From Candidatus Staskawiczbacteria bacterium (GTDB lineage: Bacteria > Patescibacteriota > Minisyncoccia > Minisyncoccales > Staskawiczbacteraceae), in assembly GCA_023245195.1 (NCBI GenBank), contig JAHFKU010000001.1, positions 27,662 through 91,661 of the forward strand: a stretch of 64,000 nt of DNA, in the 5' to 3' direction. Position 1 is the stretch's first letter. Every line of letters begins with the position of its first letter. This document shows, in pieces, positions 40,826 through 59,845 of the stretch. The notes beneath the pieces are model-generated. The model searched no databases. It was not told where the DNA came from and saw only the letters and a program-made list of their open reading frames with translations. Both the position numbers and the translations under genes were made by a program.

Positions 40826-41578
40826 ATGTCTTCAAAAAGACCACAATTAGTTAACGATGAATTTTATCATGTTGTCCTAAGAACTGTGGGTGATAGCGTT
40901 GTTTTCGAAAAAGAAGATGATTTTTATCGTGGCATTTTTTCTATTTATGAATTTAATAATGTCAACCCTGTAAATATATGGTTGAGAAGACAGCAACGTA
41001 AAAAGGAAAAGGCAATGGAAGATCTTGTAAAATCAGATTCTGTAAATTTGCGAGGTATGACCTCGCAATACTCTGAACAACTAGACAGAAGAGATAAGAT
41101 GGTGGAGATTTTATGTTTTTCTTTTATGCCGAATCACTTGCATCTTTTACTGCGCCAATTAAAAGATGATGGAATTACTCATTTTATGCAAAAAGTTGGT
41201 ACTGGCTATGCAAGATATTTTAATCAAAAATACAATCGCAAGGGGCATCTTTTCAGCCGTTTTCGAGCAGTTCATATTAAAACTGATGAACAGTTGAAAA
41301 ATACATTTACCTATATCCACACTAATTTAATCGCTTTAATCGAGCCAGGGTTTAAGGAAAAAGGATTAAAAAATCCCAAGAAGGTAATAGAATTTTTAGA
41401 AAATAGTAAACGCCACAGTTATCTTGATTATCTTAATAAAAAGAATTTTCCTTCGGTCACAGAAAGAGAATTTCTTCTAAACATATTAGGAGGTCCGGAT
41501 GGTTGCCGGGAAGAAGTAAATAATTGGGTAAATCATAAAAAAGAGTTGAAAGATTTTAGTAATGTTTTTTTAGAATAA
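40826..41578 (+). CDS. IS200/IS605-family HUH tyrosine transposase, REP-associated (RAYT-like)
   Basis: N-terminal YHVVLRT, HUH motif NHLHLLL, and catalytic-Tyr region TYIHTNLIALIEPG. Identical REP hairpins lie upstream, inside and downstream. Confidence 0.8.
   Translation: MSSKRPQLVNDEFYHVVLRTVGDSVVFEKEDDFYRGIFSIYEFNNVNPVNIWLRRQQRKKEKAMEDLVKSDSVNLRGMTSQYSEQLDRRDKMVEILCFSFMPNHLHLLLRQLKDDGITHFMQKVGTGYARYFNQKYNRKGHLFSRFRAVHIKTDEQLKNTFTYIHTNLIALIEPGFKEKGLKNPKKVIEFLENSKRHSYLDYLNKKNFPSVTEREFLLNILGGPDGCREEVNNWVNHKKELKDFSNVFLE
41048..41068. repeat. REP hairpin copy 2, inside the RAYT coding sequence
   Basis: TTGCGAGGTATGACCTCGCAA, translated in frame as NLRGMTSQY. Confidence 0.7.
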
Positions 41579-41592
41579 CTATTCTAAATTGC

Positions 41593-41635
41593 AAACAAAA
41601 ACTTTGCGAGGTATGACCTCGCAAAGTTTTTGTTT
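41593..41635. repeat. REP hairpin copy 3 with extended 20-bp stem, downstream of the RAYT
   Basis: AAACAAAAACTTTGCGAGGTATGACCTCGCAAAGTTTTTGTTT. Confidence 0.7.
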
Positions 41636-41886
41636 CTTCTGGGAAGTTATCCACAGTTTTACGGTGGTTTTTAGTATATTTCACATCATTAAAATATGGT
41701 AAAATGAACGAATAATTTTATATTTTTTCCAGCTTTTTTAAATGCCTCCCAAAAAACGCAAGCATAATATTATAACCATAAAAATAAAAGATAAAAATAC
41801 GGTTGCAAAAGCTCCGGCAAGTCTTTATGTGCGCATTGTTTCTCCTGCGCCGGCGCATAAATTATGGTTGCTTAATCTTTTTAGTT

Positions 41887-41957
41887 CTCAATTGCAAAAC
41901 TTCCGTTTTAAAAGTTACTTTTTTGGTCTTTTTCCCACAAAAGATTTTCGTGATTCA
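41887..41957. repeat. Internally deleted MITE-A remnant in the 5' leader of giant gene 2
   Basis: Matches the left 45 bp (…CCGTTTTAAAAGTTACTTTT…GGTCTTTTTC) and right end (AAAGATTTTCGTGATTCAG) of the 26831 copy. Confidence 0.6.
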
Positions 41958-41975
41958 GTGTTTTTTAAAGTTTTT

Positions 41976-44900: not shown

Positions 44901-47900
44901 ACTACCACCGCCACGGGAGCCGGAGGAATCACTGTTACTGGTGCAACAACCGTAGCCGCAAATCAAACACTAGATGCCGGATCTAAAACATGGAATTTAA
45001 CCGGATCTGTATCTACTATTACCTTTCGCGCAGAAGCCCAGGATATTAATACTGGTACTAATTGTAATCCCGGTGAACCAGCGGGTACCGTTGCCAATGA
45101 TTTATTGGTAGGAATGGTTTGGGTTGGTTCTGCCGCAGGTACCACGCCAAGTATGCCCACGGGATGGACTTCTTTATATAGCGGTATTTCTTCTAATAAT
45201 GATTGGAGATATAACGTTGGCTATATAGTGCGTGGCAGTTCAGCTGCTGCTACCACATTTACTAATACTAATCACTATCGTGAATGTTTTATTATTGGTT
45301 TCTCTGGCGTTAGTACTACAGGTACCATCGATGCCCAATCTTCTAGTGGCACTTTGAGTAATGCGAGTGCTCATAACCCGGATCCGCCAGCTGTAACTGC
45401 GGTATCATCTGCTGCAATGGCGATTGCATTGGGATGGAATGAAGCTGGTAACGCAGGGCCGGGAACTACCAACTGGACCGCACCGACAAACTATACTATG
45501 AGGTCAACTGATCCAAGTAATGGAAATGGAGTTGCTATAGCAAGTCGTCTTTTGACTAGTTCAGGTAGCGAAAATCCCTCTGCTTTTGGAAACGTAGGTT
45601 CGGGTACCACTGATTATTGGGATGGGGCAACATTTACCCTTACTCCCGCAACACTTACTCCACTAACCGTTAACGGCACTTTCACGGCCAGCACCTCAAC
45701 GGTCGCTTTTCAAAATGATATGGCTTTAACCATTCCCGCATTAACGTATTATAATCTCACCCTCACCCCCACCATCACCGCCGCCCGCACCTACACCTTC
45801 GCCGGCGCCACCACCGTCAGTAACAACCTAGATATCAACCCCACCGCTTCTTCCGCCCTGGCTCTGACCGCGAACCTTGGAGGAACCACTACGGTTACTG
45901 GCAGTATTACTATTGAAGGCACGACATCAGGAACCTCAAAGCTGGATACGGTATCGGGCTCTAATTATTCTCTTACCGCTGCTTCTATTAATATTACTTC
46001 CGCCGGCACGTTTACTCCCCAGGCTTCCACGGTTACTCTAACCGGAACCTCGGGAACCCTTTTTACTAAGGCTGGCACGTTCACCGTTGCCACTTCTACG
46101 TTCGTTGTCACCTCTTCTTCTGGCCAGCCATCGCTGTTATCAGCTGCTACCACGTTCCACATTTTAAAAATTAATACCACCGGAGGTTCCACGGTTATTA
46201 ACGCCAATCAAACCATTACCATTGATGATGCTAGTGGAGCCAAGCTCTGGATTGCCGGAGGCGTGCTTAACGACTCAGGTTATGGCATTTCCACGTCTGC
46301 TTCCACAACCAATACCCTTCAAATAGATTCGGGAACTACACTGTGCCTTGGCGGAGCTTCCACGAATACTTCCACTACTTGTGATAGCAACGCCACTTCA
46401 ACTACCTCTCGCACCCTTCCTACGTTTCAAACCTATACCCTCGACTCCGCCTCCACCGTCATCTATCTTTCCAACGCCGCCACCACCGTCACTTCCAAAA
46501 CCTACGGCAACCTCAGCCTGATGCCAAAGATGACCACCGGAGTCGGAAGTCTTACTTACACCATGCCATCGAGCACCGTCAGCATCGCCGGGAACTTTAA
46601 CATTAAGCCCACCGCTTCCAACGCGAGTCTGGCTCTCACGGTCAACTTGGCCACCGCAAGTAACACCGTCACCGGCACCACCACCATCCAACCCGATTCC
46701 ACCAACAGTCCCACCGCCAAACTCGCTTCTACCTCTTCTAACTACAACCTAACCACCGGCAAGGTAGATATTGAATCCAACGGAACCTTGGATATTAATA
46801 ATTCCACTCTCACCGTCACCGGAACCTCGGGAACTCTTTTTACCAGAGTTGGCACCTTCACCATCGGAGGCACCAGTACCACCACCTTTTCGGGCAACGG
46901 AGACGCCACGTTAAATTCAGGTACGATTACCTTTGACGCGATGACCAGTTCCGGGACGGGAACAAAGACGTTGGGTAATGATATTACTACGGGAGGTGCT
47001 TTGACTATTTCAGCCGGTACGTTACAACTTTCCACATTAAGTCTTACTGCCAATTCAACCACCTCCCTCACCGGCACTCTCAACGACAACTCCGCTACCG
47101 GAACAAATCTCTTTGTCGGCGCCGTCACTATTAATAGCGGCGGAGTCTGGACCGAAACCAACAACCCCGCTTTTGAATTCAGGGGAGGATTAACCGAAAA
47201 TAGTTCTTCTGGATTTACTTCAGGAACTGGAACTTATACTTTTAGCACTAACGCTCAAACGATTTCGGGATCCCAATCTTTTACGATTACCAACCTTACT
47301 AACAGTGTTACCAGCTCAACCGGATTAACATTTTCTGGTGCTCAACCGACGGTTACCACGTTGACGCAAGGATCAAGTGCCCAATTAACTTTCAGCGGCA
47401 CCGTGCCAACCATTACCACTCTAACCGCAACGGCTTCTTCAAATACCGTTTCATATACTTCCACGAGTTCCCAGACCACCGTTGCCGCTACTTACGTTAA
47501 CTTTATAAAATCCGGCGCTGGAGGTACTGCTACTTTGGGGGGCAATACCACGTTAAATGGAACTCTTACTATTTCTTCCGGTACACTGCAGTTATCTACC
47601 GCCAACCTTTCTGTTACGGGTGCTTCGTCTATCACTGGAACTCTCAATGACAATTCTGCTACTGGAACTAATACCTTTACCGGAGCTGTTACTATTAATA
47701 GTGGCGGAGTCTGGACCGAAACTAACAACCCAGGATTTACGTTTCAAGGTGGACTGACCAATGACAGTTCATCGGGCTTTACTTCTGGTACCGGAACTTA
47801 CACGTTTGATACTAATGCGCAAACGATATCTGGTTCCCAATCCTTCACCATTACCAATCTTACCAATAATGTTACTTCTTCAACTGGACTAACTTTTTCT

Positions 47901-50900
47901 GGCGCCCAGCCGACGGTTACCACGTTGACGCAGGGATCAAGTGCTCAACTTACGTTTAGCGGCACGGTTCCAACGATTACTACTCTAACCGCAACAGCTT
48001 CGTCAAATACCGTTAGCTACACTTCCACGAGTTCCCAAACTACCATTGCCGCCACCTATGTCAACTTTGTAAAATCTGGCTCCGGCGGTACTGCCACGTT
48101 GGGAGGTGATACCGTTTTAAACGGTACTTTAACAATATCTTCGGGTAGCCTTCAGCTTTCTACTGCTAGTTTTACTGCCACCGGAGCATCGTCTATTACC
48201 GGAACTTTAAACGACAACAGTGCCACGGGAACTAACATTTTCATTGGCGCCGTCACGATTAACAGTGGCGGAGTCTGGACCGAAACTAACAATCCTGCTT
48301 TTGAATTTAGGGGAGGACTGACTAATGATAGTTCTTCTGGTTTTACTTCCGGCACCGGAACCTACACCTTCAGTACCAACGCCCAAACGATATCTGGTTC
48401 CCAATCTTTCACGATTACTAATTTGACTAACAGTGTTACCAGTTCCACCGGACTTACCTTTTCTGGTGCCCAGCCGACCGTGACCACATTAACCCAGGGA
48501 AGTAGCGCGTACCTTACTTTTTCTGGTAACACGGTTCCAACTATTACTACGCTAACAGCCACGGCTAGCGGGAATACGGTTGAATATAGTGCTGCCTCCC
48601 AAGCCATTAAAGTTGTTTCGTATGTTAATTTGACGCTAAGCGGCAGCGGTACTGCCACCGGTGCGGTTACTACCGTTACCGGAGCTTTAAATATTTCGGG
48701 AACCGTGTCTTGGTCCGCCGATGCTATTACCAGCACCATGACTAGTGTTACCGTAAATACCACTGGGACTTTAACCCTGGGAGCGAACATGGCTACCAGC
48801 GGTGCCCTTACCGTAACGAAAGGAACTTTTAGCGCATCGGGTAGCAACTATACGGTTACCGCCGCTTCGGTATCTTCAGCAAATACCAACACCCGCACGA
48901 TTACGATGGGGTCGGGCCTTTGGACATTAAATGGAACGGGAACTGTTTGGGATACTTCAACAACGACCAATCTTACCTTAACTTCTTCGGGAACGATAAA
49001 AATAACCGATACCAGCAGTACCGCAAATACTTTTTCCGGAGGAGGAGTGACATCCTTTAATAATATTTATTTTTCGCGCGGGTCAAGTACGGCTTCAAAT
49101 ACGATCGCAGGAAGCAACACCTTTGCTGATTTTAAAGATGATGGAAGCGCCGCTCATTCCATATTATTTACCACGGGCACTACTCAAACCGTAACCACGT
49201 TCACGGTTTCCGGTACTTCCGGCAATTTGATTACTATTAACAGCACCACTACCGGAACCCACACTCTTTCCAAAGCATCGGGAACGGTTTTTTCTGATTA
49301 CTTAAGTGTTCAACATTCAATTGCTACTGGCGGCGCATCTTGGTATGCAGGGTCACATAGCACCGATAATAATTCCGTAACAACTGCCGGAAGCGGTTGG
49401 ATATTTGCTAATGCCCCTTGCACCTCTTTGGCGACTGGTAATTGGAATACCGCCGGCACTTGGGATTGCGGGCATGTACCAACGACGTCAGATCCAGTCA
49501 TCGTTGCAGCAAGCCACGTGGTTACCATGGATGTAAATTCGGCTTCTTTGGGTACCATTACGATTAATGGCACGCTAAATACCAGCGATGGTACGAGCCG
49601 ATCGTTGAGCGGAACCACGTTGGCCATTGGTGCTGTTGGAACGCTTACTGCCAACGCCTCTGTCATTACTCTTTCTGGTACTTCTGGGACACTTTTTGCC
49701 ATTACATCCGGCGGTACTTTTACCAATGGTACGTCGGAAGTGGTGATAACCAGTGCCGCCGATCTTACCCTTAATTCAACCGCTACTTCTTTTTACAAAC
49801 TAACCTTCAATAATTCTGGAAATACCACAACATTGGGCGCGGCAACTACGGTAGATAATAATTTGACGATCACGGCCGGAACTTTGCAATTAAGTACTTT
49901 GGGCCTAACTGTTACCGGCACCACCTCCCTCACCGGCACCTTAAACGACAACTCCGCCACCGGAACAAATCTCTTTGTCGGCGCCGTCACTATTAATAGC
50001 GGCGGAGTCTGGACCGAAACCAACAACCCCGCTTTTGAATTCAGGGGAGGATTAACCGAAAATAGTTCTTCTGGATTTACTTCAGGAACTGGAACTTATA
50101 CTTTTAGCACTAACGCTCAAACGATTTCGGGATCCCAATCTTTTACGATTACCAACCTTACTAACAGTGTTACCAGCTCAACCGGATTAACATTTTCTGG
50201 TGCTCAACCGACGGTTACCACGTTGACGCAAGGATCAAGTGCTCAACTTACGTTTTCTGGAAGTATGCCGACGATCACCACCTTAACAGCTACCGCCAGT
50301 GGTAATACCGTCAGTTACACTTCTACCGGATCACAAACGGTTAAAGGGACGACGTATGTCAACTTAACCATTGATAAATCTGGCCAGACAGCAACCTTGG
50401 GCGGTGATACCACGGCTAATAATAATGTAACTATCACGGCTGGCACCTTAGATGCCGATAATACCAATAATTATAATCTTACGGTTGGTGGCACGTGGTC
50501 AAATTCCGGCACTTTCACTCCACGACAGGGAACATTTACTCTTACTGGCACTTCCACATTTTCTGATACCACTTCATTTTATAATTTTGCCATTAATGGT
50601 TCCGGAAAAACGGTCACCCTTGGCGGAGCTTTAACTGCTTCAAATAACTTAACTATCACCGCCGGCACCTTAGATGTTTCAGCTTCTGGTTGTTCTTCAG
50701 CTTCTTGTGCAGTTTCTGTTGGCGGCACGTGGTCAAATAGCGGTACCTTTACTGCTCGAACAGGAACCGTTACCCTCACCGGAACTTCCACATTTTCTGA
50801 TACTACTTCGTTTTATAATCTGACAATCAACGGAAGCGGAAAAACGGTCACGCTTGGAGGAGCTTTAACTGCTTCAAATAATCTAACCATCACCGCTGGA

Positions 50901-53900
50901 ATCCTGGATGTTTCAGCTTCTGGTTGTTCTTCCGCCTCTTGTGCAGTTTCTGTTGGCGGTAACTGGTCTAATTCCGGAACCTTCACCGCAAGATCCGGCA
51001 CCGTTACGTTAACTTCAACTTCAAGCAGTGCTACCTTAGATTCGGGTGGCAGCAGCTTTTACAATCTCACCCAAAATGGAACGGGTGGTACTTACACTCT
51101 GCAAGGTGGTCTTGGAACGAGCAACAATTTAACTATCACCGCCGGAACGCTGGATACCAAATCAACATTTAATTACGGAGTTTCTGTTGGCGGCACGTGG
51201 TCGCGAAGCGGTACTTTTACCGTAAGAAATGCTAATTTCACCCTTACCGGAACTTCTACGTTTTCTGACACGATGAGTTTTTATAATTTCATTATTAATG
51301 CTAGTGGCAATACGGTTACCCTCGGTGCGGCTTTAACCGCCACCAACAACTTGACTATCACTGCTGGAACCCTGGATGTCTCGGCTTCTGGCTGTTCTTC
51401 CGCTTCTTGCGCAGTTTCTGTTGGAGGAAATTGGTCAAACTCCGGAACATTTACTAAGCGCACGGGAACGGTTACCTTAACTTCCACTTCTTCGGGCGCC
51501 ACCCTAACTTCCGGCGGCAGTAGTTTTTACAACTTAACCCAAAATGGAACCGGTGGTACTTACACTCTGCAAGATGCTTTATCGGCAACTAATAACTTAA
51601 CGATTACCGCCGGAACGCTAGATACCAAAGCCAGTTCTAACTACGGCGTCACGGTTGGTGGCACCTGGTCTAATTCTGGTACCTTTACGCCACAGCAAGG
51701 AACGGTCACCTTAACCGGAACTTCTACGTTTTCTGATACCACTTCTTTTTACAATATTACTATTAATGCCAGCGGCAATACCGTCACGCTTGGCGGAGCT
51801 TTAACTGCCACCAACAACTTAACCATCACCGCCGGAACTCTGGATGCTTCCGCTAGTGGTTGTTCGTCGGCTTCATGCGCTATTTCAGTTGGAGCTAACT
51901 TTTCAAACTCTGGAACCTTTACGGCAAGAACCGGTACGGTCACCATTACTTCCACTTCTTCAGGAGCCACACTAACTTCTGGCGGCAGCAGTTTTTACAA
52001 CTTAACCCAAAATGGTTCTGGTGGAACTTATACCCTGCAAGATGCTTTAGCTACTACTAATAACTTAACCATCACAAATGGAACTTTAGATGTATCGGCT
52101 TCTAACTGTTCTTCTGCTTCTTGTTCCGTCAGTGTTGGAGGCAACTTCTCAAATGCTGGTACCTTTACCGCCCGAAGCGGAACCGTAACATTAACTTCAA
52201 CGTCAGGAAGCGCTACGCTAAGTCCCGGAGGAACTTCATTTTATAACCTCACTCAAAATGGAAGTGGTGGAACTTATACTTTACAGGGAGGCTTAGGAGT
52301 TACCAATAATTTAACCATCACTGCCGGAACATTGGATACCAAAGCCAGCTCAAACTATGGTGTTACCGTTGGCGGCACCTGGTCTCGATCAGGAACCTTT
52401 ACGGTAAGGCAATCTAACTTTACTCTTACCGGCAACAATACGTTTGCCGACACGATGAGTTTTTACAATTTCATTATTAATGGCTCGGGTAAAACCACAA
52501 CTCTTGGTGCTGCCTTAACTGCTTCAAATAACTTAACCATCACCGCTGGCACCCTGGATGTTTCAGCCAGTGGTTGTTCCTCGGCTTCGTGCTCGGTCAC
52601 GGTTGCTGGAAACTTCTCCAATTCAGGAACCTTTACCGCCCGAACTGGCACGGTTACACTTAATGGCACGAGCCAGAAAGTATTTGGTTCCACCACCTTT
52701 TATAATTTCACAAAAAATATTGCCTCGGCTTCCGCTGACACCTTAATGTTTGAAAACACCAAAACCCAAACCGGCGCTTCCGGCGGAACCTTCAGCTTAG
52801 TGGGCGCTTCCGGAAAAGTGCTTACCCTCCGATCTATGGATTCTTCTGGAACTCAGTCAGATGGTACAGAGTGGAATCTTACGGTAAACGGCAGCCAAAA
52901 TGTTACCTATGTTGACGTTAAAGATTCCAATGCCTCCGGCGGAACGGCTATCGCTCAAACCAATTCCACGAATTCGGGCAACAATACTAACTGGACATTT
53001 AACACTGCCCCGACATTTTCTTCTATTTCTAATACCTCTGGTTATATTAAATCCGGAGGCACCGTAACTTTTACTACCACCGCCAGCGACCCTGATTCTG
53101 GCGATACTGTCACTCTGTACGTCTGCAAGGCCAACGATTTTACTGGCAGTGCTTGCGGATCGGGGGGCACGTGGTGTTCTTCTTCAGCTTCCACCACCAA
53201 TCCTTCGTGTAGTTACACGGTCCAATCTTCTGATACTGACGGCTCGCACACTTATTATGGAAATATTATAGATAATAATAGTTCTCAATCTTCGTCTAAT
53301 CCAAGATCAGGTACGTTTACCACTGATTCTACCGCTCCCACGGTTGATGCGGGAACTGATCAGTCAAAATCTGCCAGCTTCACCCAAGACGCTACGGTTT
53401 CTGATGCTACAAGCGGTATCGCTAGCTACCAGTGGAGCAAGCAATCGGGAGGCGGGACAATTACCTTTGGAACCGATACGGCCGAAGATACCACTATTTC
53501 TGCCAGTGCTGCCGGCACTTATGTAATTAGGCTGACCGCAACTGATAACGCTGGCAATTCCAATTACGACGAATTTACTCTTACCTGGACAGTTACATCT
53601 TCAAGCAGTGGCGGCAGTGGTGGCGGAGGCGGATCTCATTTTAGCGCTTTAGACAAGCCTCAAGGAAACTTTTCTCTTACTATTAATAATGGGAGCAGCA
53701 TAACTGCCAGTCAGGATGTTACCTTAAATATGATCGGGGTAGGCAGTGATGTAAAAAGCATGTCAGTTTCCAATGATCAGAATTTTGCCGGCGCGATTCA
53801 AGAAGCTTATCAAACAACAAAATCTTGGAGGCTTACTGATGGAGAGGGTCTAAAAACGGTCTATGTTAAGTTTTTCACTGCCTATGGGGTGGCTTCTGAT

Positions 53901-55331
53901 GTGATTACCTCAACCATCAATTATACGACCCAGCCTCAAAATCCTATTAGCCAAATTATTGACCAGATTGGGCAAGGTGTTACGGAAATTAAAGATAATA
54001 TTGGTAAGATATTTACTCTAAAACCGCCGGCTCCGCCAGCTTTGCCGCCAGTAGAAGAAACCGTAAAGAAGGCCGCGCCTCTTTCATTAAAAGGCAAATG
54101 GAATCTTTTGGCTTTTGATTCAATCTGGGAATTCCTTTTCGCTCCTTTGCCAACCGAAACAAAATCGTTGGCCAAAAAATTACCCGAAGTTAATGAATTG
54201 TTCAAGCAAACTGGAATTGTAACGGTTAATTCAACGGTTCAAAAATTACAAGGGGTTGAATTGACGGTTCCGGGATTAAATAAAAGAACGATTGTGCAAA
54301 AAATCGGTGGCGGCGGAACTATTCCCAAAGCAGAGCCTATTGAAGGTGGTAATTTAACGGCTCCAAAATTACAAGGCGGGGGATTAGCAAAAACGGAATT
54401 AGCGCCAGTTCAATTTGCGTTGCCAAAAAATATTCCCTTGGCCCAAATCGGGGCGAATATCAAAAAGGTTATTCCAACTGAAATTGTCTTTGCTAGAACC
54501 GCTAACGAGCTGATTGATTTTAATATTATTTTGTCTATCAATGACCAGGGAAAACTGCAACAACGAATTAATACCATTTCTGGCCAAGAAATTAAGCTGG
54601 CCGTAAAACCCGATGGGCCGGTCAGCAGTGTAAAAGGATATTTGGTTTTAAAATCAAAACAGCCAGCGCCAACCGCCTTTGAATTACCACGCAACATTTT
54701 CTCGGCATCATTGCTTTTTTCAAATCCTGATTTAGTGGCTTCTTCACAGGGCGCGCCAAAAGTTGAAACTCAATTATTATTAGATGAATTTGATTATCAA
54801 GACGAAGACAAAGATGGAATTTGGACTGCCAACATTAAAGCTCCAGCAGTTGATGGCGAATACGAAGTCACCACGATTATGAAGTACAAAGATATCAAGG
54901 TTGGAGATAAAGAAATAAGATTGGTCGTGGTGGTGGACCCGGAAGGCTATGTTTACAGCAGTGTGATGGGCGGGGAATTGCGTATTAATGGAGCGATCGT
55001 TTCTTTGTACTGGCTAAATCCCGAAAGCAAACAATACGAAATTTGGCCGGCGGCCGATTTCCAACAGGAAAATCCCCAAATTACCAACAAAACCGGTAAG
55101 TACGCATTTTTGGTGCCCGAGGGATTGTACTATATAGAAGTGGCGGCGCCCAACTATGCTACGTTCCAGTCTGAAGTTTTGACCGTCAAGCAAGGTAACG
55201 GCATCCACATGAATATTGAATTGAAAAGCAAGAATTGGTGGCTGGCCTATTTTGACTGGAAAACTATCTTATTGGCTTTGATATTTTTATTATTGTGTTA
55301 TTTAATCATTCGCGGTAAAATTAGAAAATAA
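41976..55331 (+). CDS. Giant S/T/G-rich beta-helix surface protein 2 (~4450 aa) with C-terminal TM anchor; paralog of protein 1
   Basis: Signal anchor; acidic P-rich linker; a module with the same N-terminal motif as protein 1 at ~aa 610; long near-identical tandem repeat arrays; Ig/PKD-like domains near the C-terminus; C-terminal TM helix. The track start at 41742 reads through a hairpin leader and a MITE-A remnant, so the in-frame GTG at 41976 is preferred. Confidence 0.7.
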   Translation: MAEFWHLKNTARTNIKSIALVSSLFIFSLTLTTGNSFISTYQIHQRDYRTIKDVVIKQLSPAVINQPTQYTVLVKQSLITKGKKGQYLVKLPKGATNISVKTILADQAKQILSKETPKITSLFSNLKNPLSFTKPSHSVSVKPKNGQFLLASLDESGLPETPPALEPVAVESLPVELPPAAEHAADPVKTQEESAVSESAPIQEEPVTSDVRVIKTKDATFVDVSSQAPPAPESVTENNSEASDAPVVPDAPAANDANQDSTNQDIADSPEIVSGEVPASDKSSADKPADKENKENSGQNNPDNKLKKEEYIKIDYQIQAAVITEQKTNHGKNVTVSAPNEDPEHPLTNVLAFTAIPEIFNIGQEDNIQIKWTNNQDQPMPFTAHDTNGNGKLDYLEWVVPHLSEQEFNIIYISKAFLLDQDKNVLEDIYPIVKEQDGTFQAVTQGQYVRVTFIKNLTQNNDITLYARPTDPNQPVTIKVYSALTDQLITTFDVIDHEDTYRVLLTNLEQDTDVFDLKITNANADIDFIVDPGNACATNTTGTVNWSAAGTWTSCGGGYPGQSGNSDTVTIANAAVAVTGDVTVTVDTITFTGGNASASINISNGITITATGAATINAPTSASITKEIAVGGGALSVGGLFTLASGSSSTRISKLSVGTGTATLSAGLTCTGSAETFTVASGGTFNFTGTMSAGCLTVTINSGSTTNFSGTVQLDGAYTFGIVTVNSGTTTMGAVAITFAGTTTLGGGTLAVSSATGTKTFTGAVTCTTGSFDLSAAAAVTSFAAGITANCTTFNTGSGTATLSATQSLAGSTNITFGGALTVSAGTTTNNNSGTVLSTGVLTLTGNWAQGANSTLSMNSTNSGSGTLDASTNTPNTVKYNATATLKAPTSSYHNLTITAGTVTSVAVTISNDLVVSGGTFSGTASITVNGGDVTGDGTITMTGGTFLLDGTGNFGGATAWTFNNLTFGDGSGTTTTTATGAGGITVTGATTVAANQTLDAGSKTWNLTGSVSTITFRAEAQDINTGTNCNPGEPAGTVANDLLVGMVWVGSAAGTTPSMPTGWTSLYSGISSNNDWRYNVGYIVRGSSAAATTFTNTNHYRECFIIGFSGVSTTGTIDAQSSSGTLSNASAHNPDPPAVTAVSSAAMAIALGWNEAGNAGPGTTNWTAPTNYTMRSTDPSNGNGVAIASRLLTSSGSENPSAFGNVGSGTTDYWDGATFTLTPATLTPLTVNGTFTASTSTVAFQNDMALTIPALTYYNLTLTPTITAARTYTFAGATTVSNNLDINPTASSALALTANLGGTTTVTGSITIEGTTSGTSKLDTVSGSNYSLTAASINITSAGTFTPQASTVTLTGTSGTLFTKAGTFTVATSTFVVTSSSGQPSLLSAATTFHILKINTTGGSTVINANQTITIDDASGAKLWIAGGVLNDSGYGISTSASTTNTLQIDSGTTLCLGGASTNTSTTCDSNATSTTSRTLPTFQTYTLDSASTVIYLSNAATTVTSKTYGNLSLMPKMTTGVGSLTYTMPSSTVSIAGNFNIKPTASNASLALTVNLATASNTVTGTTTIQPDSTNSPTAKLASTSSNYNLTTGKVDIESNGTLDINNSTLTVTGTSGTLFTRVGTFTIGGTSTTTFSGNGDATLNSGTITFDAMTSSGTGTKTLGNDITTGGALTISAGTLQLSTLSLTANSTTSLTGTLNDNSATGTNLFVGAVTINSGGVWTETNNPAFEFRGGLTENSSSGFTSGTGTYTFSTNAQTISGSQSFTITNLTNSVTSSTGLTFSGAQPTVTTLTQGSSAQLTFSGTVPTITTLTATASSNTVSYTSTSSQTTVAATYVNFIKSGAGGTATLGGNTTLNGTLTISSGTLQLSTANLSVTGASSITGTLNDNSATGTNTFTGAVTINSGGVWTETNNPGFTFQGGLTNDSSSGFTSGTGTYTFDTNAQTISGSQSFTITNLTNNVTSSTGLTFSGAQPTVTTLTQGSSAQLTFSGTVPTITTLTATASSNTVSYTSTSSQTTIAATYVNFVKSGSGGTATLGGDTVLNGTLTISSGSLQLSTASFTATGASSITGTLNDNSATGTNIFIGAVTINSGGVWTETNNPAFEFRGGLTNDSSSGFTSGTGTYTFSTNAQTISGSQSFTITNLTNSVTSSTGLTFSGAQPTVTTLTQGSSAYLTFSGNTVPTITTLTATASGNTVEYSAASQAIKVVSYVNLTLSGSGTATGAVTTVTGALNISGTVSWSADAITSTMTSVTVNTTGTLTLGANMATSGALTVTKGTFSASGSNYTVTAASVSSANTNTRTITMGSGLWTLNGTGTVWDTSTTTNLTLTSSGTIKITDTSSTANTFSGGGVTSFNNIYFSRGSSTASNTIAGSNTFADFKDDGSAAHSILFTTGTTQTVTTFTVSGTSGNLITINSTTTGTHTLSKASGTVFSDYLSVQHSIATGGASWYAGSHSTDNNSVTTAGSGWIFANAPCTSLATGNWNTAGTWDCGHVPTTSDPVIVAASHVVTMDVNSASLGTITINGTLNTSDGTSRSLSGTTLAIGAVGTLTANASVITLSGTSGTLFAITSGGTFTNGTSEVVITSAADLTLNSTATSFYKLTFNNSGNTTTLGAATTVDNNLTITAGTLQLSTLGLTVTGTTSLTGTLNDNSATGTNLFVGAVTINSGGVWTETNNPAFEFRGGLTENSSSGFTSGTGTYTFSTNAQTISGSQSFTITNLTNSVTSSTGLTFSGAQPTVTTLTQGSSAQLTFSGSMPTITTLTATASGNTVSYTSTGSQTVKGTTYVNLTIDKSGQTATLGGDTTANNNVTITAGTLDADNTNNYNLTVGGTWSNSGTFTPRQGTFTLTGTSTFSDTTSFYNFAINGSGKTVTLGGALTASNNLTITAGTLDVSASGCSSASCAVSVGGTWSNSGTFTARTGTVTLTGTSTFSDTTSFYNLTINGSGKTVTLGGALTASNNLTITAGILDVSASGCSSASCAVSVGGNWSNSGTFTARSGTVTLTSTSSSATLDSGGSSFYNLTQNGTGGTYTLQGGLGTSNNLTITAGTLDTKSTFNYGVSVGGTWSRSGTFTVRNANFTLTGTSTFSDTMSFYNFIINASGNTVTLGAALTATNNLTITAGTLDVSASGCSSASCAVSVGGNWSNSGTFTKRTGTVTLTSTSSGATLTSGGSSFYNLTQNGTGGTYTLQDALSATNNLTITAGTLDTKASSNYGVTVGGTWSNSGTFTPQQGTVTLTGTSTFSDTTSFYNITINASGNTVTLGGALTATNNLTITAGTLDASASGCSSASCAISVGANFSNSGTFTARTGTVTITSTSSGATLTSGGSSFYNLTQNGSGGTYTLQDALATTNNLTITNGTLDVSASNCSSASCSVSVGGNFSNAGTFTARSGTVTLTSTSGSATLSPGGTSFYNLTQNGSGGTYTLQGGLGVTNNLTITAGTLDTKASSNYGVTVGGTWSRSGTFTVRQSNFTLTGNNTFADTMSFYNFIINGSGKTTTLGAALTASNNLTITAGTLDVSASGCSSASCSVTVAGNFSNSGTFTARTGTVTLNGTSQKVFGSTTFYNFTKNIASASADTLMFENTKTQTGASGGTFSLVGASGKVLTLRSMDSSGTQSDGTEWNLTVNGSQNVTYVDVKDSNASGGTAIAQTNSTNSGNNTNWTFNTAPTFSSISNTSGYIKSGGTVTFTTTASDPDSGDTVTLYVCKANDFTGSACGSGGTWCSSSASTTNPSCSYTVQSSDTDGSHTYYGNIIDNNSSQSSSNPRSGTFTTDSTAPTVDAGTDQSKSASFTQDATVSDATSGIASYQWSKQSGGGTITFGTDTAEDTTISASAAGTYVIRLTATDNAGNSNYDEFTLTWTVTSSSSGGSGGGGGSHFSALDKPQGNFSLTINNGSSITASQDVTLNMIGVGSDVKSMSVSNDQNFAGAIQEAYQTTKSWRLTDGEGLKTVYVKFFTAYGVASDVITSTINYTTQPQNPISQIIDQIGQGVTEIKDNIGKIFTLKPPAPPALPPVEETVKKAAPLSLKGKWNLLAFDSIWEFLFAPLPTETKSLAKKLPEVNELFKQTGIVTVNSTVQKLQGVELTVPGLNKRTIVQKIGGGGTIPKAEPIEGGNLTAPKLQGGGLAKTELAPVQFALPKNIPLAQIGANIKKVIPTEIVFARTANELIDFNIILSINDQGKLQQRINTISGQEIKLAVKPDGPVSSVKGYLVLKSKQPAPTAFELPRNIFSASLLFSNPDLVASSQGAPKVETQLLLDEFDYQDEDKDGIWTANIKAPAVDGEYEVTTIMKYKDIKVGDKEIRLVVVVDPEGYVYSSVMGGELRINGAIVSLYWLNPESKQYEIWPAADFQQENPQITNKTGKYAFLVPEGLYYIEVAAPNYATFQSEVLTVKQGNGIHMNIELKSKNWWLAYFDWKTILLALIFLLLCYLIIRGKIRK
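47040..48560 (+). repeat. Intragenic tandem repeat: about 2.7 units of ~570 bp in giant gene 2
   Basis: Repeated protein unit TLNDNSATGTN.F.GAVTINSGGVWTETNNP.FEFRGGLTENSSSGFTSGTGTYTF.TNAQTISGSQSFTITNLTN.VTSSTGLTFSGAQPTVTTLTQGSSAQLTFSG; >90% nt identity between units. Confidence 0.8.
49920..50345 (+). repeat. Fourth dispersed copy of the 570-bp unit, ~300 bp identical to 47041-47340
   Basis: The run CCTCACCGGCAC...GACGCAAGGATCAAGTGC is nucleotide-identical in both places. Confidence 0.8.
50400..52760 (+). repeat. Intragenic tandem array of alternating ~222/~246-bp units (~468-bp dimer, about 5 copies) in giant gene 2
   Basis: The LTITAGTLD anchor recurs at 50428, 50650, 50883, 51130, 51351, 51598, 51819, 52066, 52311 and 52536. 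Units encode ...DVSASGCSSASCAVSVGGNWSNSGTFTARTGTVTLT... alternating with ...DTKASSNYGVTVGGTWS.SGTFT..QG..TLTG... Confidence 0.8.
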
Positions 55332-55418: not shown

Positions 55419-55781
55419 ATGGACAGATTCAAATTAGCCATTGTCATCATTGTTGCCGTTTTAGCTCTATCATTGCTTGCGAATTTTTTCCTGGGCATGG
55501 AGCTTTTTTTGCAAAAGAAAAAGACCCAAGAGCTTGCTCAATCAATCCATGTGCGGGCCAAGGTTTTGGATTTTGCTAATCTGTTTATTAATAAAGTATT
55601 GCGGGCCACGGGAGAAATTTCGTTTGAAGACCGGTTGAAAATTGAAAATGCGGTGCGAGACACGCAAGACAAAGAAATTTACGATGAATGGCAAAAATTC
55701 GTTGGGGTAAAAACCGAAGAAGAGGGGAGGGAAGAAATTAAAAATCTGTTGCAGCTGATTCTCAATAAAATATCAGCGTAA
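55419..55781 (+). CDS. Membrane-anchored hypothetical protein
   Basis: N-terminal TM helix; charged helical C-terminus; terminator downstream. Confidence 0.4.
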   Translation: MDRFKLAIVIIVAVLALSLLANFFLGMELFLQKKKTQELAQSIHVRAKVLDFANLFINKVLRATGEISFEDRLKIENAVRDTQDKEIYDEWQKFVGVKTEEEGREEIKNLLQLILNKISA

Positions 55782-55804
55782 TTCAAAGTAAATTAAACGG
55801 CTAA

Positions 55805-55849
55805 TTTGAAACAAAAAAAGCGGGATCTTGCCGCTTTTTTTGTTTCAAA
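55805..55849. terminator. Terminator after the 55419-55781 gene (symmetric, possibly bidirectional)
   Basis: TTTGAAACAAAAAAAGCGG-GATCTTG-CCGCTTTTTTTGTTTCAAA. Confidence 0.75.
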
Positions 55850-55884
55850 TTTTAATGATGATTCTAAGTATTAGGTCCTTGTCA

Positions 55885-56060
55885 CACTTTAAATCCCGAA
55901 ATGCCTTCGAGGTATTTTTCCAGAATTTGGAGATAGAAATTTGATAGAATTTTCAGGCTTACGCAACGCGTCCGGCTGAAAATTATAGCAAATTTATAGC
56001 CCAAATTCTGGTAAAAGACCCGAAGAGCGGTTTAAAACGGGCATTTCGGGATTTAAAGTG
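55885..56060. mobile_element. MITE-A copy (~176 bp) with perfect 21-bp TIRs
   Basis: CACTTTAAATCCCGAAATGCC ... GGCATTTCGGGATTTAAAGTG. Confidence 0.8.
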
Positions 56061-56130
56061 TCATCGCCTTCATACATTTTGTGCAGGCTAGTACCCGTTC
56101 TTTTTTACCCGTCATTAACCTGACCCATTG
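56053..56130 (-). pseudogene. Partial divergent duplicate of the rpmB 3' half, truncated by a MITE-A insertion
   Basis: Minus-strand translation QWVRLMTGKKERVLACTKCMKAMTL* matches L28 QWVRLITSGKRVLACTKCMKAMAK*. There is a stop immediately upstream of QW, and the ORF's own stop lies inside the MITE-A right TIR (56039-56060). Confidence 0.6.
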
Positions 56131-56272
56131 CGTCGCTTCGCTCCTTCAAAACCCTGAGACGGGAATTCGGGTCAAGCCCGCAATTCTCGCGTCTTGCCGG
56201 TTTTGAATAATTTCCTACACGGGGAAATACCCAATTTCCCCGACCCCCTTTGTGACAATGGGTCCTATAATG

Positions 56273-56461
56273 CTATTTTGCCATAGCCTTCATACACTTT
56301 GTGCAAGCCAACACCCGCTTGCCGCTGGTAATCAAACGGACCCATTGTAAATTTGGGTATTTTCTTATCTTTTGAGTCGGATTGTACTTGCCCCTTAGTT
56401 TAACTAAAGACCAAGACATTCCGGATTTTTTAGCGCAAATAGCGCATATTTTGCTTGCCAT
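56273..56461 (-). CDS. rpmB: 50S ribosomal protein L28
   Basis: 62 aa, basic, CAIC...CTKC zinc-ribbon pairs, and PNLQWVRL conserved L28 motif. Confidence 0.75.
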   Translation of the reverse strand: MASKICAICAKKSGMSWSLVKLRGKYNPTQKIRKYPNLQWVRLITSGKRVLACTKCMKAMAK

Positions 56462-56466
56462 ATTAT

Positions 56467-56586
56467 GAATTTCTAATTCTTAATTTCTAATTTCTATTAA
56501 ATTTTCAATGACCTAATTCCTAAACCTGTTTGAAAATTCACCAAGTTATAAATTTAATAGAAATTAGAAATTAGAAATTGAAAATT
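56467..56586. repeat. Family-4 element directly upstream of rpmB (minus strand)
   Basis: GAATTTCTAATTCTTAATTTCTAATTTCTATTAAATT ... AATTTAATAGAAATTAGAAATTAGAAATTGAAAATT. Confidence 0.6.
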
Positions 56587-56665
56587 AACTTAGCTGTATT
56601 CTATCCTAACTTTCTATTTTTTGCAATATCTGGTATTATGAGCTTGAAATTTGAATTAATAAGTT

Positions 56666-57298
56666 ATGTTCGACCCTATTATTATTTTTTATTTAATTAT
56701 CCTCCTTTTTTCGGTTATCATCCATGAATTATCTCATGGTTATGTGGCTAATTCCCTGGGAGACCCAACGGCCAAATATGCAGGCCGTCTTACCTTAAAC
56801 CCTTTGCCTCACCTTGATATATTTGGGTCGGTTTTGTTGCCCATATTACTTTTTATATCAACCGGAGGGTCGTTTGTTTTTGGCTGGGCAAAGCCGGTTC
56901 CGGTCAACCCCTATAATTTTAGGGATCAAACATGGGGAGAATTAAAAGTATCAATTGCCGGCCCTTTATCAAACCTATTATTAGCAGTCTTTTTTGGTTT
57001 GTTAATAAGATTCATTCCGCAAGAATTTTTTGCCACGTTATCGGGCTCCAAACTAGGTGAAATATTCCTGTTAGTCGTAAGGCTCAATATTATGCTGGCT
57101 GTATTTAATTTAATCCCCATTCCTCCGCTTGACGGTTCGTGGATATTTTTTAAATTTTTGCCTGATAGTTTTCAAAAAGCCAGAGCGTTTATTTCGCAGT
57201 ACGGAATTATCATTTTAATGTTCCTTCTTTTTTCGGGATTATTGGATTGGGTAAATTACCTGGTGGCCTATTTAGTGCGCTTAATTACGGGAATATAA
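56666..57298 (+). CDS. Site-2 protease family (M50) membrane metalloprotease
   Basis: HELSHG zinc-binding motif in TM1, multiple TMs, and a downstream LDG motif. Confidence 0.8.
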   Translation: MFDPIIIFYLIILLFSVIIHELSHGYVANSLGDPTAKYAGRLTLNPLPHLDIFGSVLLPILLFISTGGSFVFGWAKPVPVNPYNFRDQTWGELKVSIAGPLSNLLLAVFFGLLIRFIPQEFFATLSGSKLGEIFLLVVRLNIMLAVFNLIPIPPLDGSWIFFKFLPDSFQKARAFISQYGIIILMFLLFSGLLDWVNYLVAYLVRLITGI

Positions 57299-57523: not shown

Positions 57524-57934
57524 ATGCCTACTATCCATCAACTCATTAAAAAACCTAGAAAGCCGATTAAAGCCAAAAAGAAGGGCGTGGCTTTGCATTA
57601 CGGTTTTAATGCCTTGCAAAACAAGCCATCAACCTATCCGTCTCCATTTAAACGAGGAGTATGTGTGAAAGTGTTTACCCAAACTCCAAGAAAACCAAAC
57701 TCAGCTTTGCGAAAAGTAGCCAGGGTTAAATTATCCAATGGCATGGAAGTAACCGCTTATATCCCCGGAGAAGGACACAATTTACAAGAACACTCGGTGG
57801 TATTAATTCGTGGTGGAAGAGTTAAGGACTTGGGAGGAGTTAGGTATCACATTGTGCGGGGAGTGTTAGACACCGCCGGAGTTGAAAATAGAAAGCAGGG
57901 ACGAAGTCGTTACGGTACAAAATTGAAGAAATAA
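57524..57934 (+). CDS. rpsL: 30S ribosomal protein S12
   Basis: [13 protein letters not shown]...[11 protein letters not shown] canonical S12. Confidence 0.95.
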
Positions 57935-58050
57935 TTTTCAATTTCTAATTTCTAATTTTCATTAAATTATTAATACGTGAATTTTCAATCACGTTTAGAA
58001 ATTAAATGATTAGAAATTTAATAGAAATTAGAAATTAATAATTAGAAATT
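57935..58050. repeat. Family-4 element filling the whole rpsL-rpsG intergenic spacer
   Basis: TTTTCAATTTCTAATTTCTAATTTTCATTAAATT..CGTGAATTTTCAATCACG..AATTTAATAGAAATTAGAAATTAATAATTAGAAATTCC. Confidence 0.6.
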
Positions 58051-58518: not shown

Positions 58519-58552
58519 CTACGAAATACGAATATACGAATAAAAGTATTCG
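58519..58552. repeat. Family-5 motif immediately after the rpsG stop
   Basis: CTACGAAATACGAATATACGAATAAAAGTATTCG. Confidence 0.45.
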
Positions 58553-58603
58553 TCATCGCGACTTGCCGTGGCGAAGCAATCTGATTTTACAAAAAAAGGG
58601 CAC

Positions 58604-58870
58604 CTAGTTGATTTCGGTGTCCTGTTGCGAAACAGCCATGGCAAAAGATTCAGTGCGCTCCTTTGGCGATTCGCTTGATAACAAAGCTATTTCAGCTTTC
58701 TCGAATTTGTCCTCACTTCTTTGCGAGCCCAATATAAGCGAGTAGCTTGATAAAATACCTTCGTCGAGCAATTTTACAAGATCTTTTTGGTCTTGTTCAT
58801 TTTGAGGAATCAAGATAATCATGAAAGAATCTGTATCTTGCACCCTTAAATGATCCACGCTTTGTATCAT
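58604..58870 (-). CDS. Hypothetical protein (inserted between rpsG and fusA)
   Basis: 88-aa ORF in a GC-enriched patch with a palindrome at its 5' end; no family recognised. Confidence 0.3.
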   Translation of the reverse strand: MIQSVDHLRVQDTDSFMIILIPQNEQDQKDLVKLLDEGILSSYSLILGSQRSEDKFEKAEIALLSSESPKERTESFAMAVSQQDTEIN

Positions 58871-58995
58871 GGCCTCCCCCTAAATACGAGGCATCGTATT
58901 TAGTAAAAATTACTCATACTGCCTCTTGGATTGATTATATCATATTGTAAAATCTTGTTAAGTGGTCAATAGTATTTTTGCTAAAAATCCAAAAA

Positions 58996-59023
58996 TTGAC
59001 TTTGATTAAAAATAGGCTAAAAT
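58996..59023 (+). promoter_or_regulatory. Near-consensus sigma-70 promoter (TTGACT-16-TAAAAT) for hicB
   Basis: -35 at 58996-59001 and -10 at 59018-59023, which is 7 nt upstream of the hicB ATG (near-leaderless). Confidence 0.55.
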
Positions 59024-59029
59024 AAACCT

Positions 59030-59248
59030 ATGTCATATAAGTTTACCGCTATTATTAATAAGGAATCAAAATGGTATGTAGCTCACTGTGTTGAATTAGG
59101 AGTGGTTAGCCAAGGAAAAACCATTGAAGGTGCGCAAAAAAATTTAAAAGAAGCAGTAGAGCTTTATTTAGAAGATAATCCAAAGGTTAAAACGTATCTT
59201 TCAAAAGTACCTTCTTTAATCACCACCTTTGAATTGCAGTATCGTTAG
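59030..59248 (+). CDS. hicB: HicB-family antitoxin
   Basis: YKFTAIINKESKWYVAHCVELGVVSQGKTIEGAQKNLKEAVELYLE matches the HicB/UPF0150 fold. A near-consensus sigma-70 promoter lies directly upstream. Confidence 0.7.
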   Translation: MSYKFTAIINKESKWYVAHCVELGVVSQGKTIEGAQKNLKEAVELYLEDNPKVKTYLSKVPSLITTFELQYR

Positions 59249-59251
59249 AAT

Positions 59252-59439
59252 ATGGCTAAGCCACTTTCTGCTAAAATAGTAATTAAAGTTTTATGCAAGG
59301 AGTTTGGCTTTTTCTTTGTTTCACAAAGGGGTAGCCAAACTCCTTGCATAAAGAATTATCACCCGGAACATTAAAAGGAATTTTGGATTTAGCCCAAGTA
59401 GATGAAAAGGAATTTAGAGAAAAATTAATAGAATTTTGA
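59252..59439 (+). pseudogene. hicA: hicA toxin gene, frameshifted and internally shortened
   Basis: Frame 0 encodes ...IKVLCKEFGFFFVSQRGSQ... and stops at 59372-59374. The +2 frame continues NSLHKELSPGTLKGILDLAQ..., which is the HicA C-terminal motif. The GSH...TVP.H core is missing. Confidence 0.5.
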
Positions 59440-59522
59440 AAATTTTGTAAAAAAAAGACCCCGTTCCAGTTCTGGTGTGGGGTATGCGCCTACTTAATTC
59501 GGCACCTCTTTAACAATTTTGT

Positions 59523-59717
59523 TTATTTTTTTTCCATCTCGGTAACCGCTTTGGTGACCAAGCAAAGCCCTATTCCGGTCACCATGATATAGATTGCATC
59601 GATACGATTTTTTTCTCTGTCTGTTGATTCAGAAGTACCCATAAAAACTCCCGCCAGAAATATAAAAGATCCAACAGTCATGAATAATAGCGTACAGAAG
59701 CGAAAAAAGAGATTCAT
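59523..59717 (-). CDS. Small two-TM membrane protein, hypothetical
   Basis: 64 aa with two hydrophobic helices. Confidence 0.3.
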   Translation of the reverse strand: MNLFFRFCTLLFMTVGSFIFLAGVFMGTSESTDREKNRIDAIYIMVTGIGLCLVTKAVTEMEKK

Positions 59718-59796
59718 GCGGATTCTCCTTGAGAGATAGAAATCGCCAAGTTAGAGAGCTATATACATACTATATTACTAATAATATTTTGTCAAT

Positions 59797-59845
59797 TAAT
59801 TGATTAGAAATTATTTAAAAATTCAAAATTAGAAATTAAAAATTC
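59797..59845. repeat. Family-4 half-element immediately upstream of the fusA ATG
   Basis: AATTGATTAGAAATTATTTAAAAATTCAAAATTAGAAATTAAAAATTC. Confidence 0.5.

Follow-up and report, generated by a model that had tools for sequence, protein, structure and literature searches.

A mostly synonymously diverged second copy of the rpmB gene end beside a small GC-rich element in a Staskawiczbacteria genome

The DNA analyzed in the present study (the window) is a stretch of 64,000 nucleotides (nt; 64 kb) from a Candidatus Staskawiczbacteria genome. On its minus strand lies rpmB, which encodes ribosomal protein L28, and 142 nt downstream of this intact gene the last ~26-27 rpmB codons are present again. 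We refer to the end of the intact gene as the proximal copy and to its repeat as the distal copy. They are separated by a GC-rich spacer that contains a small element consisting of modules A, B, and C (the A-B-C element), and the distal copy holds a miniature inverted-repeat transposable element (MITE), designated MITE-A. The features of the locus are as follows.

56273 to 56461, minus strand: intact rpmB, encoding an L28 protein of 62 amino acids of the CxxC...CxxC type of Parcubacteria, identified by profiles and homologues
56273 to 56347, minus strand: proximal ("up") copy of the duplicated segment, QWVRLITSGKRVLACTKCMKAMAK followed by the stop codon, which completes rpmB
56338 to 56348, minus strand: X, ACAATGGGTCC, the start of the duplicated segment, which pairs with X' (repeat search and folding)
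56255 to 56265, minus strand: X', GGACCCATTGT, an exact inverted copy of X located 2 nt before the conserved element (P=0.0002 by shuffling)
56211 to 56252, minus strand: module A, CAAAGGGGGTCGGGGAAATTGGGTATTTCCCCGTGTAGGAAA, which holds a 9-bp hairpin and has 41 nt invariant in three genomes
56145 to 56207, minus strand: module B, with the stem TTCAAAACC/GGTTTTGAA (alignment and folding)
56131 to 56144, minus strand: tail C, GGAGCGAAGCGACG, the precise 3' end of the element, adjoining the distal copy (alignment)
56061 to 56130, minus strand: main part of the distal ("down") copy, QWVRLMTGKKERVLACTKCMKAMT, with no in-register start codon or Shine-Dalgarno sequence
55885 to 56060, no strand assigned: MITE-A, 176 nt, with perfect terminal inverted repeats (TIRs) and a 3-bp target-site duplication (TSD), TGA, at 56061-56063 and 55882-55884
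55871 to 55881, minus strand: displaced final codons and original stop of the distal copy (..RT and stop), reconstructed without the MITE and one TSD
55803 to 55851, no strand assigned: perfect 21-bp hairpin between A/T runs (inverted-repeat scan)

The 62-amino-acid open reading frame (ORF) was identified as L28 by TIGR00009 (E=2e-5); PF00830 aligned over its full length with E=0.006, which is below the cut-off. Close L28 homologues (532) were found in Parcubacteria (Staskawiczbacteria and Nealsonbacteria), many of which carry the L28 name, and the gene order S12, M50 peptidase, and L28 is kept in relatives.

Positions 56130 to 56053 of the minus strand read CAATGGGTCAGG...ATGACACTTTAA and are translated as QWVRLMTGKKERVLACTKCMKAMTL followed by a stop codon. 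The same residue is found at 19 of the 25 positions aligned with the C terminus of the adjacent L28, with one codon indel. This confirmed the partial C-terminal copy that an initial annotation, made from the sequence alone, had placed downstream of rpmB. The similarity begins at codon 39, and the N-terminal part is absent. The in-frame stop reported ahead of the similarity is also present, as a TGA (56146-56148) five codons upstream of where the similarity begins. The duplicated segments open with 9 identical nt, CAATGGGTC, and diverge thereafter. The two rpmB copies are 220 nt apart and in different frames. The 30-amino-acid distal fragment alone did not match any Pfam or NCBIfam profile, for which it is too short. 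The initial annotation proposed that related genomes be compared for a single or double rpmB; in this comparison, a second L28 copy was found only in the window among 141 related loci with an L28 gene, and 140 of the 141 had a single copy. Loci L001, L003, L007, and L085 represent empty sites, in which one rpmB without the spacer is followed by other sequence.

MITE-A has perfect TIRs of 22 nt (55884-55905 and 56040-56061) and relatives near 26150-26325 (TSD AAT) and 34275-34450. The TIRs, the TSD, and the presence of several copies are those of a MITE. In keeping with the initial annotation, the last two codons and the stop of the 56053-56130 reading lie within the MITE TIR. When MITE-A and one TSD were removed in silico, the distal copy ended in KAMTRT with a stop at 55871-55873, and the homologue P0007 ends in KAMART. 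The insertion point of MITE-A is three codons before the distal copy's own stop. The 3-bp TSD and the restored ending indicate that MITE-A landed within the copy and is unrelated to its 5' truncation. MITE-A is a later and ordinary insertion with a 3-bp TSD, and is not the cause of the duplicate. Truncation of the copy by MITE-A, as originally described, holds for the 3' end, inside which the MITE sits, but not for the 5' end. The suggestion of a MITE-mediated rearrangement scar was near the truth with respect to "scar", but the scar was made by another element.

The proximal and distal copies differ at 17 of 66 aligned bases (26%), and 3 of 22 codons differ at the protein level. In length, they differ by one whole codon only. 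In 200,000 trials of a neutral model that distributed 17 random substitutions over the gene copy, no trial gave so few amino-acid changes. The same neutral-decay test gave P<=1.5e-4 in each of five other loci with a similar layout. A neutrally decaying duplicate was ruled out because the differences are almost wholly synonymous and the only indel is a full codon; the decayed tandem duplicate envisaged in the initial annotation was not upheld by these counts. The string TGKKERVLAC of the distal copy also occurs in the bona fide L28 homologues P0003 and P0023. Together with the near-synonymous divergence, this indicates that the two copies were shaped as functional L28 ends in separate lineages. 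Both versions are natural L28 alleles, each of which evolved as a working gene end in a different lineage. The G+C content at third codon positions (GC3) of the proximal copy is 0.63, which is 2.05 standard deviations higher than the 5' part of rpmB would predict, whereas that of the distal copy is ordinary against the same prediction (z=0.67).

The spacer (56131-56272, 142 nt) has a GC content of 50-54% versus 22-45% in its surroundings, and folds into the stem CGGGGAAAU/AUUUCCCCG and a 62-nt hairpin (z = -2.7 for the minus strand and -4.1 for the plus strand). It is GC-rich and structured, as the initial annotation had described. Modules A, B, and C together occupy 56131-56252 (~122 nt) and are non-coding; no significant ORF longer than 30 amino acids was found in the spacer. 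The conserved block reads GGGGGTCGGGGAAATTGGGTATTTCCCCGTGTAGGAAA, and the end motif of the element reads GGCGAGCGACG. Bases 20-65 of the spacer, with the hairpin CGGGGAAAT/ATTTCCCCG, recur at 98% identity in the related locus L090. The loop of module B is GTG in L090 and in a third locus, L164, and is occupied by a nested 44-nt palindromic insert (56155-56198) in the window. In the stem of module B, L090 carries one compensatory change from A-T to G-C, read straight from the sequences. Tail C ends in ...GAGCGACG; it is ~55 nt long in L090 and L164 and is shortened to GGAGCGAAGCGACG in the window. The A-B-C element is present as a single copy within the 64-kb window.

A known RNA was not found to account for the spacer. 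Rfam 15 gave no match in the window at the gathering threshold. At E<=10, the region 55700-56700 gave only a chance-level match to RsaE (17 bits, E=4.5) within 56131-56272, and Rfam gave nothing on the element of L164. The covariance scan proposed in the initial annotation as a source of a known-RNA explanation, thus, identified no family. ARAGORN predicted no tRNA or tmRNA in the window that accounts for the spacer. The element had no match in phage and plasmid collections, and none was found in a scan of viral contigs. The regulatory RNA leader that had been suggested was not supported, since no Rfam family was found even at E<=10, the single rpmB of relatives lacks the spacer, and the kin of the spacer are located at other genes.

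In many genomes, the 12-mer GAGCGAAGCGAG, which contains a GCGAAGC mini-hairpin, is located in intergenic spacers beside ribosomal-protein genes, where short GC stems carry it as their loop. Examples are L064 1543-1556, L078 1162-1175, L090 970-983, L132, and L146; the corresponding site in the window is 56131-56144. In both kinds of insert that are associated with duplicated gene ends, it is close to the 3' end.

A search for further members of the family by blastn and fuzzy matching in 163 related loci retrieved L090 only. L164 was reached by way of a spurious ORF, P0121, which a protein search returned for the five-frame translations of the hairpin. This database ORF (77 amino acids, L164 205-438) is an artefact that runs from the start of hairpin A through the element into a displaced uvrA C terminus. 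Three members of the family are known (the window, L090, and L164), in which the 41-nt A block is identical and B and C are homologous. L090 is a 60-kb metagenome contig with an L28 gene 77% identical to that of the window, and its element lies between rpsG (S7) and fusA. The A block is invariant although the L28 and S7 genes of these genomes are only ~77-84% identical.

In all three members, the end ...GCGACG directly abuts a 3'-terminal gene fragment in the same orientation as the element. In the window, GCGACG is followed by CAATGGGTCAGG of rpmB. In L090, the fragment is the last 9 codons of rpsG (FAHFARSR and stop), which differ from the gene end at 6 of 27 bases, all six synonymously. In L164, it consists of the last 35 uvrA codons (E=1e-16 to UvrA residues 923-957). 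The lengths of the duplications vary (27, ~78, and at least 105 nt), and a shared attachment core was not found; the sequences CAATGGGTC, TTTGCGCATTTTGC, and GAAGGAGGCGATAAG at the rpmB, rpsG, and uvrA targets are unrelated. On the other side, the inverted copy X' is 11 nt in the window, 18 nt in L090, 19 nt in L164, and 9 nt in L047, which carries a related rpsG insert. In A-B-C members, X' is located 1-5 nt before block A, and its inverted partner lies 5-55 nt further left. X' is significant against shuffles in the four loci (P 0.002 to <0.0002) and forms a strong stem with its partner. X' is perfect against the gene-proximal copy and imperfect against the distal copy. The left flank of L164 is the start of a divergent dinB-type gene, which is unrelated to the uvrA fragment at the right; this indicates that X' is made from whatever DNA stands at the left.

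The same layout was found around other inserts when 835 kb of related loci were scanned for gene ends repeated downstream. In L146, L132, and L047, the end of rpsG is duplicated around a hairpin insert of 51-52 nt, and the duplicates (ANRAFAHFAW and stop) differ at 6-9 of 33 bases with one amino-acid change at most. In L067, the end of another gene is duplicated with 38 identical bases, after which eight of eight differences are synonymous; a secondary MITE lies between the copies. In L013 (reverse strand, ~4904-5830), a 700-nt nucleotidyltransferase/HEPN-like two-gene cassette is located between copies of the last 26 rpsG codons, of which the first 29 nt are identical and the remainder differ mostly synonymously. 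The cassette encodes a nucleotidyltransferase and a substrate-binding/HepT-like protein of the toxin-antitoxin type. The layout is patchy, being present in 5 of ~110 rpsG loci and 1 of 141 rpmB loci. An insertion with identical flanking repeats was not found in the 835 kb. In a comparison of L090 with its seven nearest insert-free relatives, the distal copy was 85-89% identical and the proximal copy 78%. Read-through or frameshifting into the distal copy was ruled out because frames vary among loci and stops intervene.

Other features were noted at rpsG. In several Parcubacteria (L055, L131, L132, L039, L044, L162, and L051), rpsG and fusA are separated by a recurrent spacer of ~200 nt, with conserved blocks and apparent long-range pairing. 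These genes are adjacent or nearly so in many relatives; in the window, they are separated by a 1.3-kb insert (58519-59845) with a 69-amino-acid HicB/UPF0150-like ORF (59039-59248) and an apparent disrupted partner. In L040 (~1908-1945), 39 nt within rpsL are replaced by 31 nt of the rpsG 3' end in inverted orientation, which breaks rpsL, and rpsG itself is apparently frameshifted. L040 comes from a low-coverage metagenome-assembled genome, and this may be an assembly or template-switch artefact.

We favor, at about even confidence, the explanation that the A-B-C element came into the end of rpmB along with a substitute 3' end derived from a diverged relative, the native end being left as a remnant. 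We assign similar odds to 56053-56272 forming the right-hand portion of a composite insertion at the rpmB 3' end. The copies differ like alleles of separate lineages, which argues that the event brought in DNA of a diverged relative. The gene-side join would be a homologous crossover in the gene end, where the copies are identical at their start (over 9 nt in the window, and over 29 and 38 nt in L013 and L067, respectively). At the far side, the defined end of the element, ...GCGACG, would have been fused to the resident gene where the duplicated segment begins, and at the left junction, X' may be a short inverted flank copy templated by snap-back synthesis. The constant end of the element on the resident gene and the templated X' suggest that these other joins were not homologous. 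The proximal copy would keep rpmB intact and translated, the distal copy would be the displaced and untranslated native end, and MITE-A would have been inserted into the latter afterwards. Diverged direct repeats may persist because identical ones would quickly be lost by repeat-mediated deletion. The anatomy, the membership in the family, the divergence beyond neutral decay, and the features of the junctions were observed at these loci, whereas the assignment of the proximal copy as foreign and of the distal one as native, the sequence of events, and the enzymology are inferences. The distal copy of L090 is nearer to the insert-free relatives, which fits a native distal copy, and the GC3 values in the window agree; these two indications weakly suggest that the distal copy is the native end.

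Several points weigh against this explanation. X' would not be expected from import by simple recombination. Neither an endonuclease nor an integrase nor a reverse transcriptase was found beside the element, and none of the 41 window ORFs scanned with Pfam, a set that includes part of the small ORFs, encodes an integrase, recombinase, or reverse transcriptase. Only three members of the A-B-C family are known, and among these, L164 represents a rearrangement, or else a chimera that joins two insertion sites. The nearest rpmB relative is 89% identical over the 5' part and has a 3' end like neither copy, so that it does not directly show which copy is native. Codon usage of the proximal and distal copies gave no consistent signal across six loci. 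Every distal copy found has kept an intact reading frame, which requires recent events or an unexplained selection. The hairpin inserts of L146 and L132 are identical at 45 of 47 positions, whereas both flanking copies are only 76-79% identical, a divergence equal to that of the genomes; neither copy obviously travelled with the hairpin.

An alternative that we consider possible but rather unlikely is that the A-B-C element transposes itself in a target-primed manner via a single-stranded RNA or DNA copy and produces a long target-site duplication. A 3'-OH at a nick would prime copying from the 3' end of the element, a second nick would be made 30-100 nt away, and the 5' junction would be closed by snap-back synthesis, yielding X'; the long duplication would heal insertions near gene ends. 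The copies would be identical at birth, and one would later be replaced by recombination with a diverged allele, while insertions with identical repeats would be lost fast. The precise 3' end in three members, the variable duplication length, and the irregular 5' junction, with an inverted copy ending at the first base(s) of the duplicated segment, are in line with this route. So are the different targets (rpmB, rpsG, uvrA, and possibly the 5' end of dinB), unlike a single attachment site, and the fact that X' is perfect against the proximal copy in all four loci. However, the extra step of allele replacement is needed every time, no reverse transcriptase is encoded among the window ORFs scanned, and the palindromes belonging to the RAYT-like Y1 transposase at 40826-41578 are unrelated to the element. 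We rank this route second because no identical-repeat insertion was found in 835 kb and because L013 has the same duplication around an ordinary two-gene cassette without transposon-like ends. We tentatively raise the possibility, which we consider unlikely, that the A-B-C element and the rpsG hairpins form a new class of non-autonomous mobile elements, very small in size and hosted by Candidate Phyla Radiation bacteria. These would be inserted by a target-primed single-strand mechanism undescribed in bacteria and would hit conserved gene ends, with the damage offset by a long duplication or end replacement. In a variant of this, X' may pair with the target gene and thereby serve as a programmable guide.

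The 3' ends of ribosomal-protein genes (rpsI, rpmG, and rplL) are known integration sites of integrative and conjugative or mobilizable elements. The locus might be a remnant or miniature of a site-specific integrative element, with an attP carrying a substitute gene end, the two copies as attL and attR, and the spacer as the remains of the arms. The layout, which is that of icd/icdC in Escherichia coli, and the identical starts of 9, 29, and 38 nt mentioned above, each followed by synonymous divergence, speak for it. We nevertheless regard it as improbable because the invariant A block is found at unrelated targets with no common core, X' is taken from whatever is at the left, which is beyond the action of an integrase, no recombinase is encoded in or near the insert or among the window ORFs scanned, and a circle of 120-220 nt is far smaller than known integrative elements. 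The spacer may also be a functional RNA, either a structure of the 3' untranslated region or an intron-like insert that is removed from the transcript, with both ends being used. This would account for the intact frame in seven of seven distal copies, the invariance of the A block across genomes with L28 and S7 genes ~77-84% identical, and the stable folds (z -3.2 to -8.4). It is very improbable, however, since the proximal copy has a normal stop (TAG, TGA, or TAA, depending on the locus), which makes removal needless, and the copies in the window are out of frame with an in-frame TGA before the distal copy. Moreover, the inserts are diverse, the extremes being a hairpin of 51 nt and a two-gene cassette of 700 nt, no Rfam family was found, the spread is patchy, and MITE-A lies within the distal copy. 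Paralogous L28 genes exist in other bacteria, and the copies in the window are direct and adjacent, as expected of a decaying tandem duplicate or paralogue without its 5' part; an assembly artefact of two strain variants in series would have the same appearance. We consider this last group of explanations the least probable, with hardly any weight. The divergence pattern is not that of neutral decay, the 5' boundary is the precise end of a mobile-element family and is accompanied by X', and two rpmB genes were not found in any relative. Regarding an artefact, the 9 nt shared at the boundary do not suffice to form a de Bruijn-graph loop, and the layout recurs in independent NCBI, JGI, and Logan assemblies.

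Other features in the window were also noted. From its sequence, the 55803-55851 hairpin is likely a bidirectional terminator common to rpmB and a convergent ORF of 120 amino acids; a comparable hairpin is located 3' of rpmB in L007. AT-rich inverted and direct repeats of TAGAAATTAGAAATT units lie directly upstream of rpmB, rpsL/rpsG, and fusA (56462-56587, 57933-58050, and 59794-59845), and a motif resembling them is found upstream of rpmB in L007. They may be a promoter or operator motif common to these genes. Beside the rpmB locus, a single ORF of 4529 amino acids (41742-55331) consists of many near-identical threonine/glycine/serine-rich repeat units; antisense frames inside this ORF were a source of false gene-end duplicates in the repeat scans. 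The RAYT-like gene at 40826-41578 encodes an IS200-like Y1 transposase of 250 amino acids (Y1_Tnp, 31 bits; NCBIfam REP_Tyr_transpos, E=1e-8, below the cut-off). A 21-nt palindrome, TTGCGAGGT-ATG-ACCTCGCAA, is present in three copies in 40791-41624, upstream, downstream, and inside this gene (41048-41068). The gene for the transketolase N-terminal subunit is split at approximately Pfam position 104 into ORFs 5598-5963 and 6457-7044 by an ORF of 182 amino acids (5973-6521), which has the HNH-like motifs CIQCGS...NVDH...LCLSCH and no Pfam or NCBIfam match. At the break, each transketolase half has an additional CxxC-x-GTG peptide, and the two peptides (MEKEVPCDSCHGTGIDDKPIKN followed by a stop codon, and MEKTSCKKCNGTGKIKENF) are similar. 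This looks like a gene in pieces that arose through a free-standing homing endonuclease; the peptides may form a split zinc-ribbon clasp. Nothing ties the RAYT-like or the HNH-like gene to the A-B-C element.

If the favored explanation is true, compact genomes with little intergenic space take up foreign or selfish DNA beside essential genes by means of a spare gene end, and the old gene end is a short-lived fossil. The signature would be a gene end, an insert, and the same gene end with synonymous differences, often with an inverted flank copy. Annotation pipelines miss it or miscall it as small ORFs, such as P0121. This signature would mark recent recombination between lineages in organisms that cannot be cultured.

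Among known systems, REP/REPIN elements with RAYT, the Rickettsia palindromic elements, and the GC clusters of yeast mitochondria are short GC-rich hairpin modules of AT-rich genomes that nest in each other and occur at gene ends. The A-B-C element is similarly short, non-coding, and GC-rich, with a nested 44-nt hairpin in the B loop and a position at gene ends. It differs in being present once in 64 kb, in lacking an inverted partner of its own, and in its association with gene-end duplications of 27-105 nt; to our knowledge, none of these families makes such duplications. Multiple copies and cognate flanking hairpins are expected of a REP/REPIN-RAYT system, whereas the window holds a single copy and a RAYT-like gene with a different 21-nt palindrome. 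Target-primed non-long-terminal-repeat (non-LTR) retrotransposons and short interspersed nuclear elements (SINEs) have a precise 3' junction, an untidy 5' junction with inverted templated sequence, and variable target duplications. The three A-B-C members share the precise 3' end, the variable 5' junction, and the variable duplication; unlike these retroelements, they have no poly(A) or simple 3' tail, their host is bacterial, the flanking repeats are not identical, and no reverse transcriptase was found in the window ORFs scanned. The repetition of a gene 3' end downstream, past a GC-rich hairpin, also resembles the variable and template repeats (VR/TR) of a diversity-generating retroelement. 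Such a pair was ruled out because the mismatches involve all four bases and are synonymous, the ORFs scanned include no reverse transcriptase, and the target is a ribosomal-protein gene.

The closest likenesses are found in elements that replace gene ends. When e14 is inserted in icd of E. coli, the insert supplies the last codons, the displaced native end (icdC) stays as a pseudogene, and the differences are mostly synonymous (PMC13626634). The intact target gene, the fossil end at the far side, and the synonymous differences between the copies are the same at rpmB. However, e14 is 15 kb in length, has its own integrase, and uses one attachment site, whereas the insert described here is ~140 nt long and non-coding, is associated with varied genes, and has an inverted flank copy at the left. 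Fungal mitochondrial mobile endonuclease ORFs (mORFs; in Allomyces atp6 and Glomus atp6, atp9, cox2, and nad3) have a foreign C terminus, an insert, and the native C terminus (C*) in this order (PMC3630166). The C-terminal copies show 63-81% nucleotide identity and encode near-identical protein, and horizontal transfer was given as the cause (PMC3630166). The layout at rpmB and its synonymous divergence are alike; in mORFs, a LAGLIDADG or GIY-YIG endonuclease drives homing, whereas the insert in the window has no ORF. The replacement of gene ends is a kind of event with precedents in prophages and fungal mitochondria; no precedent is known among bacterial elements this small. The carrier element and its junctions are new, and the A-B-C family is previously undescribed.

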